This document shows positions 8,976 to 47,808 of a stretch of DNA of 64,000 nucleotides, in pieces (positions within the stretch are counted from its first letter, which is position 1; every line of letters begins with the position of its first letter). This stretch comes from Octopus vulgaris (lineage: Eukaryota). Made by a program: the position numbers and the translations under genes. A model generated the notes under the pieces. The model saw only the letters and a list, made by a program, of their open reading frames with translations. It was not told the origin of the DNA and did no database searches. Location: NCBI GenBank assembly GCA_951406725.2, contig OX597828.1, positions 43,276,001 through 43,340,000 on the forward strand, read 5' to 3'.

Positions 8976-9246
8976 ATAATAATAATAATAAGAAGAATAC
9001 TAATAATAAGACAGTCATTAGTAACAATGTAATGCGGTAGTACCCGTGCTGAGTATATTTCTACAACACTGTTTTCTTTACGTGCTATAAAGGCAGAAAT
9101 AGATCTGCCTTTAACTCAGTTGCGCGCCTGTGTTTCGCATATTTTTTGTGTGTTTTATTACATAAAGCTCACCAACTGCCTATACTGAGTACTTACTGAG
9201 TGTTACTTCATTTTGTTTCGGAATTCGAATACACATACATATATAT

Positions 9247-9455
9247 GTGGGGAGAGTTTACGAAAAAAACAAAAGACGAAGACAGGTGGTGTACAAAACA
9301 AACAGATGTATTAGTGTAACGCTCAGGAATAGAAAAAGTATTTTACGTTTCGAGCCTACGCTCTTCTACAGATAGGGACACAGAAAAAACAAGGAGAGGA
9401 ACAAGAAGAGAAAAAAGGAGAGAAAAAAGGAGAGAAAAAATGTGTGTAGTGGCTA
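9247..9455 (-). mobile_element. PLE 3'-end fragment with HHR motif (about 9341-9375, core CUGUAGA)
   Basis: Visibly homologous to 41670-41860 (aacaaaagacgaag.caggtgg, gtattagt, cgtttcgagcctacgctcttc); TA-flanked. Confidence 0.8.
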
Positions 9456-12239: not shown

Positions 12240-12397
12240 ACATTTCCTCAATTTGTTTTCCCTTATTCCTTTCTGTCGAAGAGCGTAAGCTTGAAATATA
12301 AAAAACAATTCCATATATTTCCCGAGCATTAAACTAATCCACTTGCTTGTTGTTCCTACACCTGTTTTCTTCTTTGTTTTTCTAGAAATTTGAACTG
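12240..12397 (+). mobile_element. Diverged PLE 3'-end fragment with HHR motif (12270-12303, core CUGUCGA)
   Basis: ttt CTGTCGA A GAGC gtaa GCTT GAAA TATA aaa. Downstream sequence matches the PLE terminus and ends at (TA)n. The CA-rich 11750-12240 stretch may be more of its 3' UTR. Confidence 0.65.
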
Positions 12398-12949: not shown

Positions 12950-13117
12950 TGTACCTATATTATTTGCATTATTTACATTTGACGGATATTTGTCCTCAAC
13001 TTGTTTGTTGTTAACACAACGTTTCGGCTGATATAACCTCCAACCTTCATCAGGTGGCTTGGGGAAATTTCGAACCTGGGTTTTCGTTCCTAAAGTATTT
13101 TTCGATGTTGTTGTTGC

Positions 13118-38419: not shown

Positions 38420-38545
38420 AAGTCGATTACATCATCCCAAGTGCAGTGTTCAACTGGTTCTTAATCTGTTGACCCCGAAAGGATGAAAGACAAGGTCGAC
38501 TTGGTGGAATTTGAATTCAAAATATAAAGACGGACGAAATACATA
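38420..38545 (-). mobile_element. SINE family B fragment
   Basis: gaccccgaaaggatgaaag.caaggtcgac. Confidence 0.7.
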
Positions 38546-39845: not shown

Positions 39846-40374
39846 TGTGCTTTGACAGGAACACCTACGTTTTATTCTTAAGTAATCTGCATTATCTATT
39901 ATACAGTTGGAACGAAATAGTGGCCAATTGCCGAAAGTGAGGGAACATTTTTCTCGAGAAATTTCTTGGCAAACAGAGGACAGAATCTATGAAAATCGTT
40001 TTTAGACGACTTCATTCAATTTCGTGGTATAATTGCCCTCGACAGCCTTATACACTACAGTAACAAAATGACGAAAGCCATCGACAAACCACCAACAAAT
40101 ACCAACGTGCAGTGAGCCATAAGTAATTACATTGAAAAATGCGAGCATAAAAAATAATATTCTTAAGATTATAAACCTGAAAAGTACAAGTTATTACACC
40201 TGTAAAAGTATAGGACAAGCTATTACTTCTAGTAAAGTAAAGAAAAATAAACTTTTTACTTAAAATATTGAAGCACAGAATGCCAGTTCTTCTAATTTAT
40301 CACTCTTTACAGTTCTCATCATTTAAATTTATTGTACAAAACTCTTCAGCTAATTTGTAAGTTTGTCTAATTAG

Positions 40375-41030
40375 TCGACCTCTGCGGAATTTGAACTCAG
40401 GACGTAAAGACAGAGGAAATACCGCTTCTAAAATACAAAATATTGTCAACAACGTTAAGACTAAAGCCTGTTTTATGTGACACATTCTACCAGTATCGGA
40501 AGTTTGAAAGTGTTTAGTTAAAAAAATTAATGAAATAATATGAAAGGCGAAGTCGACCTCGGCGAAATTTGAAGTCAAAACGTAAAGACAGACAAAATAC
40601 CTATTTCTTTACTGCCCACAAGGGACTAAACACAGAGACGACAAACAAGGACAGACAGATAGATTAAGTTGATTATATCGACTCCAGTGCGTAACTAGTA
40701 CTTATTTAATCGACCCTGAAAGGATGAAAGGCAAAGTCGACCTCGGCGGAATTTGAACTCAGAACGTAGCGGCAGGCGAAATACCACAAAGCATTTCGCC
40801 CGGCGTGCTAACGTTTCTGCCAGCTCGCCACCAGACAGACAAAATACCTATTTCTTTACTACCCACAAGGGGCTAAACACAGAGAAAACAAACAAGGACA
40901 GACAAACGGATTAAGTAGATTATATCGACCCCAGTGCGTAACTGGCACTTATTTAATCGACCCCGAAAGGATGAAAGGCAAGGTCGACCGTTAAGAATTT
41001 TTCCTGGTGCAATAACGCTTCTGCTAGCCC
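40375..41030 (-). mobile_element. Cluster of nested/tandem SINE family B pieces
   Basis: At least three partial copies. Confidence 0.82.
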
Positions 41031-41636
41031 GGCACCGTAGAGAATAATCATTCATTTTAGAAATATATTCTTTACTCTTATTCCTTAAGCGTTATACTCC
41101 CTTACTTCCTTACCTACATGACATTAAATTTCGTAACATGTTACCTCATAACTCTTTTTTTACTCATTTTCGCGACTAGCGATTCTGAATTCCTCATGCA
41201 TTTTACTATCATTTTAGCCTAAGTAAAGTGTACTTTTAATTTAAAATTTTAAAAAATTATATTAATTGAAAATGAATATCTGCCTTAATGCCCCCCCCCC
41301 GCCTCGATGTCGCATATATGTTCATGTAACTTTCTTTTCTACTGAACCAAATCTCAAACTATTTATGCAATTAAAAGTTTGCAATTTAGTAAAGAACTGA
41401 ATTAGTGGTGAAATTTGGAAGCTGCTGCGATTGAGGAAATGGTGGACTTAAGAATGATTAGGTTCAAGCCTAACACCTTTCACGTTTATTTCACAGATAT
41501 TTACGCTGTCATGTGATGAATCAGCTAGAAACAGGTCGTATCCCAGTGTGAAATTTGTATACATCCATACATATATATGTAAAGATACATTGAGAAAGAG
41601 AGGGGCAGACATGATAAATATTTACATTTACATGAC

Positions 41637-41662
<26 letters not shown>

Positions 41663-41669
<7 letters not shown>

Positions 41670-42994
41670 ACGGGAAGCTTTATGAAAATAAACAAAAGAC
41701 GAAGGCAGGTGGAAAACAAACGAACAATTGTATTAGTATGGCGCTCACGAAATATAAATAAAACAAGTCTTTAACGTTTCGAGCCTACGCTCTTCAACAG
41801 AAAGATACACAGAGAGAGAAAAACACAGAAAGAAGGAGAGAAAAAAAATGCGTGCAGTAGCTAACGAATCAACATGGCGATCTGATTTCGGACAGAGGTC
41901 AAAGATCAAACATGAGACGCGAGAGCGAAATAAGGGGAGATAATAGGGTTGATAAAAGGGTTGAGGGACAAGCTAAAAGTGCGTGGGAGGGGTCTGGATG
42001 TGTGTATGTATAGGGTTGGTGTATGTATTAGTATGTATAAGGGTGTGTGTGTGTGTGTGTGTGTATGAGAGAGTATTAGTGCGTAAGATTGGTCTGGACG
42101 TGCGTATGTATGGGGTTGGTGTATGTATTAGTATGTATTAGTATGTATTAGTACGTATTGGTATGTATAGGTGTGTGTGTGTGTGTGTGAGAGAGTATAA
42201 GTGCGTATGCGGGGTCTGGACGTGTGTATGTATAGGGTTGGTGTAAGTATTAGTATGTACTAGTATGTATTAGTACGTATTAGTATGTATTAGTTGGTGT
42301 GTGTATTAGTATGGCACATCATATGTGATGTGATGTGTAAAGTCATGTGGTGTAGTGAGGAGAAGAGGGGAGGGGGAGAGGGGGAGAAGAGGGGGAGAAG
42401 GGGAGGGGAAGAAGAAGGAGGGGGGGGAGATGGAGGATGGGGGAGATGAGAGGATGGGGGAGAAGGAAGGGGATGAGGGGGATGAAGGAGGAAAGAGGGA
42501 GAGGAGGAGAGAGAAGGGGAGAGAGGGAGCAGAGGGAAGGGGAAGAGGGAGGGAGAAAGAGGGAAGAAGGGAAGGGGAGTAGGGGTGAAAGGATGAAGGA
42601 CTGAAGAAGTAGGGGTCGGGGGGAGAAAGGATAGGTGAGGAGGGGGAGAGGGGGGTTAGATGAGGAGGGGGAGAGTTGAGACCAAATGGCGTATAAGAGC
42701 GAAGAGAGAAGATTAATTCCTGTTCACGGCGCAAACGGGAATCCGGATGGCCTCTGTGTAAGGACAAACCGAACACAGATAGGTGTTGCAAGGAGTGACC
42801 GGTGGAGCGGAAATGGCGTGAGACCGGTGTGTCGTTCGCAAGGTGGATGTCACGAAGGTGTTCCGCGAACCGGTCAGCCAAGCGGCGTCCCGTTTGTCCG
42901 ATGTACAAGGAATTGCAGAGAGAGCAAGAGATGCAATAGATAATATTGCTGGAGGTGCAGGTGAAGGAGTGGATGATGGGATAGGGTCGATGGT
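41663..42994 (-). repeat. 3' pseudo-LTR of the PLE
   Basis: Near-identical to 46157-47467, with a handful of substitutions and indels in the polypurine tract. Confidence 0.92.
41768..41805 (-). ncRNA. Minimal type I hammerhead ribozyme motif (PLE 3' pLTR), core variant CUGUUGA
   Basis: Minus strand: TCTTT CTGTTGA A GAGC gtag GCTC GAAA CG TT AAAGA. Stem I TCTTT/AAAGA, stem II GAGC/GCTC, palindromic AACGTT helix III. Confidence 0.8.
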
Positions 42995-45539
42995 GGGTGC
43001 TAGTGAGGCGGGTGGTGTTGGAGAGGTAAGGGCAAGTGCGGCAACGTGGGCGGGAGCAGGGGAACGAGCCGGGTTGGGAGGTAGGGTCAGGGAAGGAGCT
43101 ATGGACCAAAAGGTCTCGAAGGTTGTGGGCTCGTTTGAAAGGGGGGAGGGGTCGGTTAGGGAAGAGGTGTGAAGTGGACGGGTCGGACTGGAGATGACGG
43201 AAAGCTCGAAGAATGGTGCGTTGGAGACGTAGGGTCGTGGGGTGGTAAGTGAGGGGAAAAGGGAGGCGGGAGACTACAGGGCGGGTTCGGGGAGAGAGAG
43301 CAGATACACGGTCCACGGACCGTGCTCTGGCAAGGGCGGTGTGGATAGTGGTGAGGGGGTATCCACGTAGGGTGAAGTGGTGAGCCATACGTTGAGACTG
43401 AGTCTCAAAGTCATGGTCGTCACTACAGAGCCTACGTAGACGGAGGAATTGGGAATAGGGGATGGAAAGCTTGGTGTGTTCTGGGTGGGAGGAAGAGAAG
43501 TTGAGGTATGAGTGTGAGTCTGTGTGTTTGTAGTGAATGGAGGTGGTAAGAGTGGAGTGAAGAATGCTAACCGAAATGTCGAGGAAGGAGACAGAGGTGT
43601 TGGAGATAGTGGAAGTGAAGTGGAGGGCTGGATGGAAAGATTGGACGAAAGAGAGGAAGGAATCTAGATGTTCGCGGGAGAGTGAAGTGGCACCGATAAT
43701 GTCGTCAATATAACGACCATATAGTTCAGGAGTGGGACCAGTGAAATTAGAGAATATTTGGGCCTCAACATAGCCAACGAACAGGTTCGCATAGTTGGGG
43801 CCCATTCGCGTTCCCATGGCCACTCCCGAGACCTGATGGTAGAACTCGCCCGCGAACGAGAAGCAGTTCAGAGTAAGGACAAGTTCGGCCAGACGAATGA
43901 GTGTGGAGGTGTCAGGTACAGGGTTAGAGCGGAGGTCAAGAAAGTGTCGAAGGGCCTGCAGTCCTTCGTGGTGAGGGATAACAGTATAGAGGCTTTGGAT
44001 GTCCATAGTAAAAAGGATTTTGGAGGAGCCGGGAGGAAAGGAGAAAGAGTTGAAAAGCCGGAGAGCATGGTTGGTATCGTGGATGTGGGAGGGAAGAGAT
44101 GCCACTAGGGGGGCAAGGACACGGTCGAGGTATTTAGAGATGAGCTCCGTGGGGCAGTTACAGGTGGAGACGATGGGGCGGCCAGGGTTGTTGGGTTTGT
44201 GGATTTTGGGGAGGAAGTAAATGGTGGGGGTACGTGGGGTTCGCACAATTAGGTTGGATGCGGTGCGGGGGAGACGGGAGGACGAGATGAGGTCTTGGAC
44301 AGTAGAGGATACCGTCTGTTGGTAGCTACGTGTGGGGTTAGAGGGCAGAGGGGAATAGAAGGAGGTGTCATTGAGTTGGCGGAAAGCTTCGGCCCTATAG
44401 AGGTCCGCGCGCCACACCACTACAGCTCCACCCTTGTCAGCCGGTTTGATGATAATGTCAGCGCGCCGTTGGAGGGAACGAAGAGCCAAGAGCTCAGCCG
44501 GGGAGATGTTGAAGCGGCGTTGGCGCCTGGAGAAGTTGAACCGCTCCAATGCACGCTGACAAGCGCCCGCGAAAAGATCCACTGCCAGGATCTGGCCAGG
44601 GGCAGGCGTCCACGGGGATGGTCGGCGGCCCAGGCCAGTGAAGCAGTCGTCCTCTTCGTTGGGTGTGGGTGGCGAGTCGTGGTAATGCGCACTCAACCGG
44701 ACACGGCGCACAAAGCTGTGGACATCAACTCGCGTCTGGAATTCCTTACAGGATGGAGTGAGGGGGATGAAACGCAGACCCCTACCAAGGACGGAGCGTT
44801 CAGCCGCAGAGAGGGGAAGATCGGGGGGAATGGTAACAACAGACGGAAGTGGAGAAGGGGTGGTAGGTCTCGTGGAGGTCTGAGGGGGAGGGATTGGAGA
44901 GGTGTGTGGGGGGTGGTTGGGCGGGGCAGTAGGGTTAGGTGTAGGTGGATGGAGCCTAACGGGAGGGGAGAAGGGGTTGTAGGGAGGGGCAGTGGGGTTA
45001 GGTGTGGGTGAATGGAGCCTATCGGGAGGGGAGAAGGGTGGTGGAGGAGTTGGGGTAGTGGCGTCGGGTAGGGTGGAATGGAAGAGTGATTGGAGTTTAC
45101 GAAGTTTGGTATCAGAAAGCAATTGATGGAAGAGTTGATTCAAATGGATAATGAAGCGTAGCGTGTTTGGAGCATAGAGAGGCGGCAGAGAGGAGAAGAA
45201 GGTGGAGAAAGCAGGAGGAAGAAGGCGGTTGATGGCATGTAGTTTGGAGAGATTGGAGCGAATGGTGGCCCGCATAAGGCGGTAAGATGTGGTGCGGAGT
45301 ATGGGTAAGATGGAAGAATCCGAGTGGAGAGCAGGGTGGAAGTGGAGGCGGAAACCTTTAGGGATGAGTCGGTGATGTAGGCAGCGGCTTAGGAAAGAGA
45401 CATGGCTAGAGAAGCGGGTTTTTTTAAAAAGAAGTAGAGAGAGATTAACGGACGGCTGAAGGCAATATACAGGAAGAGAACGGAGATGATCCTTCAAACG
45501 GTGATGGAGGGTGAGGAGGTAGGACCTAGGATCCGGCAT
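42306..45539 (-). CDS. PLE polyprotein: reverse transcriptase + Cys-rich linker + GIY-YIG endonuclease (about 1077 aa from first ATG, MPDPRSY...)
   Basis: PLE RT motifs IKPADKGGAVVVW, YFLPKIHKPNNPGRPIVS, MDIQSLYT, GVAMGTRMGPNYANLF, YGRYIDDI, FLDISV and thumb SHPEHTKLSIP. Linker PCSRPRCRTC. GIY-YIG region [30 protein letters not shown]...REQELI...GLN. No stops or frameshifts. The track's start at 45773 is non-ATG and low-complexity. Confidence 0.93.
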   Translation of the reverse strand: MPDPRSYLLTLHHRLKDHLRSLPVYCLQPSVNLSLLLFKKTRFSSHVSFLSRCLHHRLIPKGFRLHFHPALHSDSSILPILRTTSYRLMRATIRSNLSKLHAINRLLPPAFSTFFSSLPPLYAPNTLRFIIHLNQLFHQLLSDTKLRKLQSLFHSTLPDATTPTPPPPFSPPDRLHSPTPNPTAPPYNPFSPPVRLHPPTPNPTAPPNHPPHTSPIPPPQTSTRPTTPSPLPSVVTIPPDLPLSAAERSVLGRGLRFIPLTPSCKEFQTRVDVHSFVRRVRLSAHYHDSPPTPNEEDDCFTGLGRRPSPWTPAPGQILAVDLFAGACQRALERFNFSRRQRRFNISPAELLALRSLQRRADIIIKPADKGGAVVVWRADLYRAEAFRQLNDTSFYSPLPSNPTRSYQQTVSSTVQDLISSSRLPRTASNLIVRTPRTPTIYFLPKIHKPNNPGRPIVSTCNCPTELISKYLDRVLAPLVASLPSHIHDTNHALRLFNSFSFPPGSSKILFTMDIQSLYTVIPHHEGLQALRHFLDLRSNPVPDTSTLIRLAELVLTLNCFSFAGEFYHQVSGVAMGTRMGPNYANLFVGYVEAQIFSNFTGPTPELYGRYIDDIIGATSLSREHLDSFLSFVQSFHPALHFTSTISNTSVSFLDISVSILHSTLTTSIHYKHTDSHSYLNFSSSHPEHTKLSIPYSQFLRLRRLCSDDHDFETQSQRMAHHFTLRGYPLTTIHTALARARSVDRVSALSPRTRPVVSRLPFPLTYHPTTLRLQRTILRAFRHLQSDPSTSHLFPNRPLPPFKRAHNLRDLLVHSSFPDPTSQPGSFPCSRPRCRTCPYLSNTTRLTSTHHRPYPIIHSFTCTSSNIIYCISCSLCNSLYIGQTGRRLADRFAEHLRDIHLANDTPVSRHFRSTGHSLQHLSVFGLSLHRGHPDSRLRREQELIFSLRSYTPFGLNSPPPHLTPLSPSSPILSPPDPYFFSPSSFHPYSPSLLPSFSLPLPLPSAPSLPFSLLLSLFPPSSPSSPSFSPILSSPPSSISPPSFFFPSPSPPLLPLSPSPLLLTTPHDFTHHITYDVPY

Positions 45540-46156
45540 GATGGGATAGCGGGAAAAAAACGTTCGAAAAAACAAAAAAAACAAAAAACAAAAATTATCG
45601 TATGAAAAAAATAGAAAAAAAGGATAGCGAGAAAAGGGGAGAAAACAAATGTTCAAAAAAACAAAAAAATAATAATCGTATGAAAAAACTAGATAAGTAA
45701 GCGATAGGGGCAGAAAAGACGGGGCAAACGGAACAGGGAAAGAAAGAAGGGAAGCAGAGAGAGGGGGAGGCAAAAAAAGTGGGGGTGCAGGCAGAGGAAA
45801 CGGAGTATGGACATCCAGAGAGGGAAGAAAGACGGAAAGGAGAACAAAAATTCAGGAAAATGTGGGAAGCATGAAATGAATGTAAAAAAAGTGGTAATAT
45901 AAGAGAAAATAAAAATACAACAAACGGGACAGTTTATGCGAACAAGTTCAAGGTTGAAAGTTCAAGGTGAGAAATGTGTAGACGTCGTGGTATATTTTTT
46001 AAGGATTTCACATCAATGCAAAGTCACTTTGATCCGCGAAAGAGAGGTGCAGCCAATGGTAAGTATCCAAGAGGTAAAGAAAATCCAAGGTAGAGGTAAG
46101 TGTTGATAGTGGTATTGGTAGAATATAGGATGAAAGTGAGACCACGTGAGCGCATA

Positions 46157-47467
46157 ATATATAACGGGAAGCTTTATGAAAATAAACAAAAGACGAAGGC
46201 AGGTGGAAAACAAACGAACAATTGTATTAGTATGGCGCTCAGGAAATATAAATAAAACAAGTCTTTAACGTTTCGAGCCTACGCTCTTCAACAGAAAGAT
46301 ACACAGAGAGAGAAAAACACAGAAAGAAGGAGAGAAAAAAAATGCGTGCAATAGCTAACGAATCAACATGGCGATCTGATTTCGGACAGAGGTCAAAGAT
46401 CAAACATGAGACGCGAGAGCGAAATAAGGGGAGATAATAGGGTTGATAAAAGAGTTGAGGGACCAGCTAAAAGTGCGTGGGAGGGGTCTGGATGTGTGTA
46501 TGTATAGGGTTGGTGTATGTATTAGTATGTATAAGGGTGTGTGTGTGTGTGTGTGTGTATGAGAGAGTATTAGTGCGTAAGATTGGTCTGGACGTGCGTA
46601 TGTATGGGGTTGGTGTATGTATTAGTATGTATTAGTATGTATTAGTACGTATTGGTATGTATAGGTGTGTGTGTGTGTGTGTGAGAGAGTATAAGTGCGT
46701 ATGCGGGGTTTGGACGTGTGTATGTATAGGGTTGGTGTAAGTATTAGTATGTACCAGTATGTATTAGTACGTATTAGTATGTATTAGTTGGTGTGTGTAT
46801 TAGTATGGCACATCATATGTGATGTGATGTGTAAAGTCATGTGGTGTAGTGAGGAGAAGAGGGGGAGGGGGAGAAGAGGGGGAGAAGGGGAGGGGAAGAA
46901 GAGGGGGAGGAGAAGGGGGAGGAGAGGATGGGGGAGAAGGAAGGGGATGAGGGGGATGAAGGAGGAAAGAGGGAGAGGAGGAGAGAGAAGGGGAGAGAGG
47001 GAGCAGAGGGAAGGGGAAGAGTGAGGGAGAAAGAGGGAAGAAGGGAAGGGGAGTAGGGGTGAAAGGATGAAGGACTGAAGAAGTAGGGGTCGGGGGAGAA
47101 AGGATAGGTGAGGAGGGGGAGAGGGGGGTTAGATGAGGAGGGGGAGAGTTGAGACCAAATGGCGTATAAGAGCGAAGAGAGAAGATTAATTCCTGTTCAC
47201 GGCGCAAACGGGAATCCGGATGGCCTCTGTGTAAGGACAAACCGAACACAGATAGGTGTTGCAAGGAGTGACCGGTGGAGCGGAAATGGCGTGAGACCGG
47301 TGTGTCGTTCGCAAGGTGGATGTCACGAAGGTGTTCCGCGAACCGGTCAGCCAAGCGGCGTCCCGTTTGTCCGATATACAAGGAATTGCAGAGAGAGCAA
47401 GAGATGCAATAGATAATATTGCTGGAGGTGCAGGTGAAGGAGTGGATGATGGGATAGGGTCGATGGT
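46157..47467 (-). repeat. 5' pseudo-LTR of the PLE (duplicated GIY-YIG coding end + 3' UTR)
   Basis: Track ORF 46800..47594 repeats the same GIY-YIG peptide; 5' junction runs directly into (TA)n. Confidence 0.92.
46262..46299 (-). ncRNA. Minimal hammerhead ribozyme motif (PLE 5' pLTR)
   Basis: Identical to 41768-41805. Confidence 0.8.
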
Positions 47468-47485
47468 ATATACATATATATATTG

Positions 47486-47559
<74 letters not shown>

Positions 47560-47808
47560 CATACATACATGCATACCTTCAAATATACATACATATTAAC
47601 AGATGCAGTTGAAATAGGAGTTTTAGTGACAAATCAACTCAAAAGCTTATCGTTCATACCTATTACAATGTTTGTTCATTTGAGAGAATTTTTTATAGTT
47701 ACTGCTACATACATACATACATACACACCAACTCCCTCACACACACACACATATATATATATATACACATAGACATATATAGATACATACATGCATATAC
47801 ACATGTGC

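Follow-up and report, generated by a model that had tools for sequence, protein, structure and literature searches.

A Penelope-like element (PLE) lies on the minus strand of a 64,000-nucleotide stretch of the Octopus vulgaris genome (assembly GCA_951406725.2, contig OX597828.1, positions 43,276,001 to 43,340,000), here called the window; all coordinates are window positions (Table 1). It combines a single telomerase-like reverse transcriptase (RT) open reading frame (ORF), a GIY-YIG endonuclease (EN) with its R, H, E and N residues, pseudo-long terminal repeats (pLTRs) and a hammerhead motif in the pLTR, the features of EN-bearing PLEs. It also has those of the Neptune group: an EN located C-terminal to the RT, a CX2-5CxxC linker followed by a long spacer, and a CCHH set in the nuclease. 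Judged from its sequence, this is most probably an intact, full-length Neptune-type PLE in partial tandem, with an insertion that likely dates back no more than one to two million years (My), and likely competent for retrotransposition.

Table 1. Features of the octopus element and of hammerhead-bearing insertions in the window
Feature	Position	Strand	Remarks
Whole element	41663..47467	minus	5,805 bp; partial tandem, ~1.3 units of a 4,494-nt unit
5′ pLTR	46157..47467	minus	1,311 nt; 5′-truncated copy of the 3′ end of the unit
3′ pLTR	41663..42994	minus	1,332 nt; ORF end and 3′ untranslated region (UTR)
Leader	45540..46156	minus	617 nt; pyrimidine-rich (46% T); three short upstream ORFs
Candidate promoter, pLTR/leader junction	46135..46163	minus	TATATAT 46163-46157, CACGTG 46148, initiator-like TCACT 46139
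ORF	42306..45539	minus	1,077 amino acids (aa); Met 45539, stop 42306, no internal stop
Pro-rich insertion, aa 160-220	44880..45062	minus	61 columns, gapped in >80% of 37 homologues
RT core and thumb, ~aa 362-745	43305..44456	minus	catalytic D513, D612, D613
Cx4CxxC linker	43032..43058	minus	CSRPRCRTC, aa 828-836 (C828, C833, C836), then C861
GIY-YIG endonuclease, aa 864-955	42675..42950	minus	CCHH and R890/H894/E939/N955
Pro/Ser low-complexity tail	42309..42674	minus	122 codons beyond the last nuclease motif
Minimal type I hammerhead, 5′ pLTR	46263..46298	minus	core CUGUUGA (U6); predicted cut after 46267
Minimal hammerhead, 3′ pLTR	41769..41804	minus	U6 core; predicted cut after 41773, ~110 nt before the element end
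TA/TATG microsatellite, 5′ junction	47468..47567	unstranded	~100 nt
Degenerate TA/TATG run, 3′ junction	41623..41662	unstranded	short
Short related insert, U6 hammerhead and 3′ tail	9241..9450	minus	115/149 columns identical to the element end (77%)
Short related insert, U6 hammerhead and 3′ tail	12269..12397	plus	81/115 columns identical (70%); ends at a long TA array
Unrelated minimal hammerhead	13013-13061	minus	core CUGAUGA, the canonical form; flanked by an (AAT)n array and by a TA array

The two pLTRs are direct repeats, 97.6% identical over 1,337 columns and spaced by 4,494 nt. Since the 5′ pLTR, which contains the EN from about aa 850, the tail, the 3′ UTR and the hammerhead, is a truncated copy of the 3′ end of the unit, the element is a partial tandem. 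A sequence-only reading of the window had recognized these tandem pLTRs, and its boundaries for the element are exact. The 3′ UTR within the 3′ pLTR holds a 122-bp CA-rich tandem repeat. The indels that separate the pLTRs in a purine tract (42356-42680 versus 46850-47150) sum to 21 nt, so that both copies reach the same stop via different frames; this could be due to chance, selection or a homopolymer assembly error. In the leader, the single AG behind a long pyrimidine tract, at 45689, is a candidate splice acceptor; a retained spliceosomal intron is an optional trait of EN-bearing PLEs. At the internal junction, the TATATAT of the pLTR stands 26 nt ahead of TCACT; this putative promoter is a post hoc motif match to the layout described in PMC3846280. 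ARAGORN detected no tRNA within the element. As to the TA repeats that the sequence-only reading placed at both junctions, the 5′ array is confirmed and the 3′ one shrinks to a short degenerate run, the first TATATAT of which is encoded by the element, because the same string recurs at the internal junction. The search for a target-site duplication returned a 12-nt TA-rich string present on both flanks, within low-complexity DNA.

The ORF is uninterrupted, and its RT motifs, Cys linker and nuclease residues can all be located, as had been claimed. Its product is ordered as an N-terminal helical domain, RT, thumb, Cys linker, GIY-YIG domain and tail. The RT shows ADKG at aa 367-370, LPKIHK at 443, GRPIV at 453, the catalytic D513, GVAMG at 572 and YIDD at 610-613; the GIY-YIG motif stretch spans aa 867-881, with the CCHH residues at C872, C875, H909 and H915. 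Pfam returns RVT_1 above its cut-off (E 1.4e-7) and GIY-YIG below it (E 0.0065). An AlphaFold model of aa 1-956 reaches a mean predicted local distance difference test score (pLDDT) of 85, with disorder at 157-230, and the top seven Foldseek matches of this model are all telomerase RTs; a PDB sequence search with the protein gave no match. The element departs from 11 of 210 conserved columns (0-24 in the homologues, median 9, n = 37), and none of these departures falls at the catalytic site. Two segments distinguish it from its near homologues, namely the Pro-rich insertion, which contains a 63-bp tandem repeat and is predicted to be disordered, and the Pro/Ser tail; together they make the figure of 1,077 codons exceed the folded protein by ~180 residues. 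By comparison with the homologues, both are family-specific additions.

The age of the insertion can be estimated from its repeats. With the purine tract set aside, 7 of 1,008 sites distinguish the pLTRs (95% interval 2.8-14.4 changes). If they were identical at insertion, and if the rate implied by PMC13282606 (0.09 per 25 My) holds for this host, the age would be ~1 My. Furthermore, 20 of the 24 listed sequencing runs, covering seven studies and three organism labels, hold 65-78% of the 31-mers of the element, which corresponds to ~98.6-99.2% identity if substitutions cause all the loss; one of these runs may be the source sample. No RNA run is among the listed holders of the 31-mers, a result that is uninformative on expression. 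Low pLTR divergence and near-identical DNA in 20 runs indicate that the element is likely young, in line with the recent insertion proposed earlier. The run data fit a young family, in which many young copies are not separable from one insertion shared by sister species. Such youth has precedents. In O. vulgaris, 336 recent near-full-length Penelope-like insertions in 31 families occupy 1.83 Mb (PMC13282606); these families, at ~5.4 kb each, are of the size class of the element, and the relevant passages of that source give no split into clades. Intact, young and active Neptunes are described in killifish (Fundulus, PMC12602865), and partial tandems can be active (PMC3846280).

Several features weigh against a recent and competent element. 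The pLTRs are not identical, which implies that the insertion is not brand-new or that its template was mixed. Four conserved nuclease positions are altered (E882Q, N911R, G947R and T948S), three short upstream ORFs lie within the leader, and 36 of 37 homologues stop 2-11 aa past the terminal Asn motif, without such a tail. Thus, the element could be the same but dead, intact only through its youth and belonging to a family silenced, or disabled by its tail, nuclease substitutions or leader. The nine substitutions and several indels carried overall by the pLTRs, the non-consensus nuclease residues and the 122-aa tail would agree with this reading, which deserves some weight but is the less probable one, as the catalytic residues are all kept and near-identical DNA occurs in many runs. 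Moreover, the four nuclease substitutions are common to both pLTR copies, and departures shared in this way predate at least one copying round. An intact and likely competent element is therefore preferred, with its activity as a potential only.

A second question concerns the TA repeats. All four hammerhead-bearing insertions of the window end beside TA, and the three with a U6 core do so at the same register. The background is high, since a TATATA is no more than 5 nt away from ~14% of the window, and one TA insertion would be weak evidence alone. For linker-bearing PLEs, a (TA)n bias has been reported (PMC8557442), and the same source cites Arkhipova 2006 for the hypothesis in which Neptune is guided to microsatellites by its Cys linker. 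Targeting to TA fits the window, and the sequence evidence for it is suggestive. The relatives weigh on the other side. Among those with the same linker, (TA)5 occurs within 3 kb of the nuclease end at 1 of 21 loci, and TATATA is found within 250 nt of the hammerhead in 0 of 17, so that possession of the linker does not ensure insertion into arrays in every host; their loci are TA-poor (0.5% versus 14% in the window). The target bias anticipated by the sequence-only reading is thus suggestive in the window and not seen in the relatives. Alternatively, the association may reflect a TA-rich genome in which, once the element is inserted, arrays grow by slippage from its own terminal TATATAT. This would suit the high background, the partly element-encoded TA at the 3′ junction and the relatives without arrays. 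It is nevertheless an unlikely explanation: the long array adjoins the 5′ end, to which the element contributes no TA, all four window insertions end at TA, and linker-bearing PLEs have the bias cited above (PMC8557442).

The hammerheads of the element have an unusual core. Both pLTR motifs fit the consensus of Cervera and de la Pena (PMC4209133), and their predicted cuts are exactly one unit apart. They share with the minimal hammerheads of metazoan PLEs the type I fold, an extra base after A9, the pair G10.1-C11.1, the palindromic 15.2-16.2, a stem III without loop and one copy per pLTR (PMC4209133). The passages of that source report U3-A8 and not U6, whereas U occupies core position 6 in the four related copies of the window; positions 7 and 17 vary. 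Among 80 related loci, 27 reach the nuclease end and 21 continue for at least 250 nt beyond it; in nine of these 21, the same hammerhead motif follows 102-310 nt past the nuclease end, in the same orientation. Across an alignment of 12 rows, both partners vary in 9 of 11 pairs, with a covariation of 0.70 versus 0.22 after shuffling. The eight outside rows were chosen by a pattern that requires pairing, so that the covariation is partly there by construction and the position of the motif is the independent evidence. Most hammerhead motifs of the related loci (15/17) have A6. Because a natural hammerhead with A6C cleaves poorly in Mg and works better with Mn (PMC3088659, PMC7151607), weak cleavage is predicted for the U6 core. 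The element can probably do without its hammerhead.

Other searches on the ribozyme were negative. The best 150 of 340 Rfam rows are all sub-threshold and repeat-driven, and include no hammerhead. Folding of the monomers of three hammerhead regions is not better than that of shuffled sequences (z -0.64, 0.28 and -0.39), as expected for motifs without stem III. In the literature, no report of U6 in PLE hammerheads was found, which is thin evidence of absence (the one paper listed for an A6U change deals with twisters); nothing on the U6 motif was found for octopus hammerheads, and no paper matched the short motifs of the window. Outside the window, U6 recurs in a Neptune relative, where a hammerhead combines it with U3-A8 (locus L033, 2791-2830); a similar U6 match at a second locus (L041) may be due to chance. 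A related element (L014) has identical hammerheads at 1028 and 4094, 3,066 nt apart, and is a partial tandem with no TA array.

The window contains two short U6 inserts related to the end of the element. Their matches to the element are far above those of shuffled sequences, and they are identical to each other in 91 of 123 columns (74%). Both are solitary and monomeric, with differing 5′ ends, and one has a broken stem I. As they are solitary and far more diverged than the pLTRs, the simplest reading of these sequences is that both are 5′-truncated copies of older related families. For the insert at 12269..12397, an extension of the homology to the part upstream of the hammerhead did not stand (score 36 versus a shuffle maximum of 46). 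The insert at 13057 was rejected as a relative of the element (score 20 versus a shuffle maximum of 30), and its hammerhead is likely the 3′ end of another PLE family.

Could such inserts instead form a non-autonomous family, of retrozyme or SINE (short interspersed element) type, mobilized in trans by the enzyme of the element, as the sequence-only reading had supposed? The two related inserts share with it the U6 core, the stem II sequence, the 3′ tail and the end register by TA. Non-autonomous hammerhead elements derived from PLEs have been proposed (bioRxiv 10.64898/2026.07.22.740005), and trans action via pLTRs is described (PMC3846280). The non-LTR retrozymes of the former study are, like these inserts, short hammerhead sequences related to pLTRs, but they are defined by tandem hammerhead units, whereas the inserts of the window are monomers with different 5′ ends. 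With identities of 77% and 70% to the element and 74% to each other, the inserts are also far older than the element copy; the stem I of one is broken and the third, at 13057, is unrelated. Mobilization in trans is accordingly improbable and, for this copy, unsupported, and older truncated copies are retained as the explanation.

The assignment to Neptune requires more than the linker. The sequence-only reading took a Cys-rich linker as the mark of the group, which proves too broad: it characterizes Neptune, itself a paraphyletic group, and Nematis, and Naiad has it too (Craig et al. 2021, PMC8557442), so that the linker alone is insufficient for diagnosis. The call of a full-length Neptune-type element itself stands, being supported at the sequence level by domain order, linker spacing, RT motifs and ~55-65% identity to Neptune1_Ap. 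Of 85 homologues with a detected nuclease, 81 have such a linker, with a spacer of 28-32; linker and spacer were compared by eye with Fig. S2 of PMC8557442. Identities over two RT blocks, counted by hand after fitting by eye to Fig. S7 of the same source, are 52/94 and 62/95 with Neptune1_Ap (~55% and 65%), 36/94 and 34/95 with DreriNep1, 34/94 and ~27/93 with PoseidonFr, and ~28/90 with Nematis_C4 (second block only). By these counts, Neptune1_Ap has the closest named RT. It resembles the element also in domain order, the Cx4CxxC linker with its spacing, CCHH and RT motifs, in a comparison that covers the RT, linker and nuclease parts of the figures (PMC8557442).

Phylogeny agrees with this placement in part. 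A quick, midpoint-rooted IQ-TREE analysis used 65 rows from 124 proteins, after 13 were dropped for coverage <90% and the unnamed rest was halved. The element falls within a 13-row clade (SH-like approximate likelihood ratio test support 98) together with four proteins that bear the DKG-region motif of Neptune1_Ap; a fifth carrier, from a shark, lies outside this clade. The nearest relative in the tree has 65% RT identity, and the sister clade contains an anemone. A point against giving the tree much weight is that all rows inspected are of Neptune type, without a non-Neptune outgroup, so that it is not a rooted test. Searches for outgroups gave nothing in viral contigs and only Neptune-type RTs in the longer protein searches; the hammerhead 20-mer is absent from the prokaryote genomes searched. 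The best whole-protein matches are 54-56% identical, among 3,825 clusters at E 1e-30 or better. As far as such matches go, the group is large and known, and the family of the element is not closely represented in the protein collection.

Other clades were considered and set aside. Naiad/Chlamys is excluded by a C-terminal nuclease and the lack of a fingers insertion (59 aa from D513 to G572), Penelope/Poseidon by the presence of the Cys linker, Hydra by DKG, CCHH and Cx4CxxC in place of DKT, no CCHH and CxCX5C, and Nematis, by eye, by RT motifs of another type and by the long linker spacer, which contrasts with its reduced linker and short spacer. Membership of Nematis or of another Cys-linker clade, which the common linker, the paraphyly of Neptune and a tree rooted only at its midpoint might still favour, is thus very improbable, since the linker-to-nuclease spacer is long, as in Neptune and not as in Nematis, DKGGA, EGLQAL and PNYAN are of Neptune type, and Neptune1_Ap shows roughly double the identity of Nematis_C4. 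Long relatives of Neptune type exist among the homologues (P0116, 1,326 aa, and P0112, 1,282 aa); P0116 carries an additional PF02338 domain, which we take to be an OTU-like protease.

How such an element may move can be sketched by analogy with PAc, the Anolis Poseidon. In vitro, PAc was shown to nick AT-rich DNA, to start RT internally and to have a hammerhead that is aided by the protein and can be dispensed with (Frangieh et al. 2024, PMC11167929); these three features are carried over from Poseidon. Transcription would start within or at the end of the 5′ pLTR, from the promoter possibly formed at the pLTR/leader junction. The protein would bind its own RNA, and the nuclease would nick AT-rich DNA, here a TA array, perhaps aided by the Cys linker. 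The start of reverse transcription would lie ~110 nt beyond the hammerhead, at a UAUAUAU of the RNA that could pair with the nicked TA strand; the element and the related inserts share a 3′ end ~110 nt past the predicted cut. The partial tandem may arise when a read-through or circular RNA is copied beyond a single unit, and early stops of the RT would leave short hammerhead-plus-tail pieces, such as those of older relatives in the window.

The analogy has its limits. PAc and the element share a single RT-EN ORF, pLTRs and a hammerhead, and the fixed RT start downstream of the hammerhead that is found in PAc is proposed for the element too. However, PAc lacks a Cys linker; hammerhead and ORF start overlap in PAc, whereas the hammerhead of the element lies ~720 nt upstream of the Met in the tandem; and PAc primes without homology, unlike the element, the end of which matches its TA target (PMC11167929). 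That the Poseidon start site is not homologous to the cut DNA in vitro (PMC11167929) counts against the annealing step. A bolder joint reading is conceivable but improbable. The lineage would prime telomerase-style, by pairing of its terminal UAUAUAU with a nicked TA array; the same TA end would serve as a TATA box that only tandem copies have; the fixed U6 hammerhead would be a protein- or metal-gated switch; and the enzyme would still mobilize short hammerhead monomers. Within this reading, anthozoans might further have been the donors of the lineage, as its nearest named relatives are of coral or anemone type and not molluscan (Neptune1_Ap presumably comes from Acropora).

With intact young Neptunes known in Fundulus (PMC12602865) and hundreds of recent insertions in octopus (PMC13282606), the find is unsurprising, and the element is ordinary apart from its U6 ribozyme core and TA-ending tail. 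Its value is that of a reagent, as it joins an intact ORF and a natural U6 hammerhead to a TA target and a 3′ end that has been mapped. The in vitro work found on PLEs concerns Poseidon (PMC11167929), and linker steering is still a hypothesis (PMC8557442); the element would allow direct tests of linker-dependent targeting, homology-assisted priming and the need for a ribozyme.

The surroundings are dominated by simple repeats. Microsatellite density in the window is extreme (202 tandem-repeat rows), with 22-40% GC outside the element, and Pfam gave no match above cut-off in the 20 other ORF-like stretches of the window. A dispersed SINE-like repeat (family D20) is present in copies at 38482-38543, 40362-40423, 40540-40601 and 40724-40785, and may resemble the tRNA-derived SINEs of octopus.

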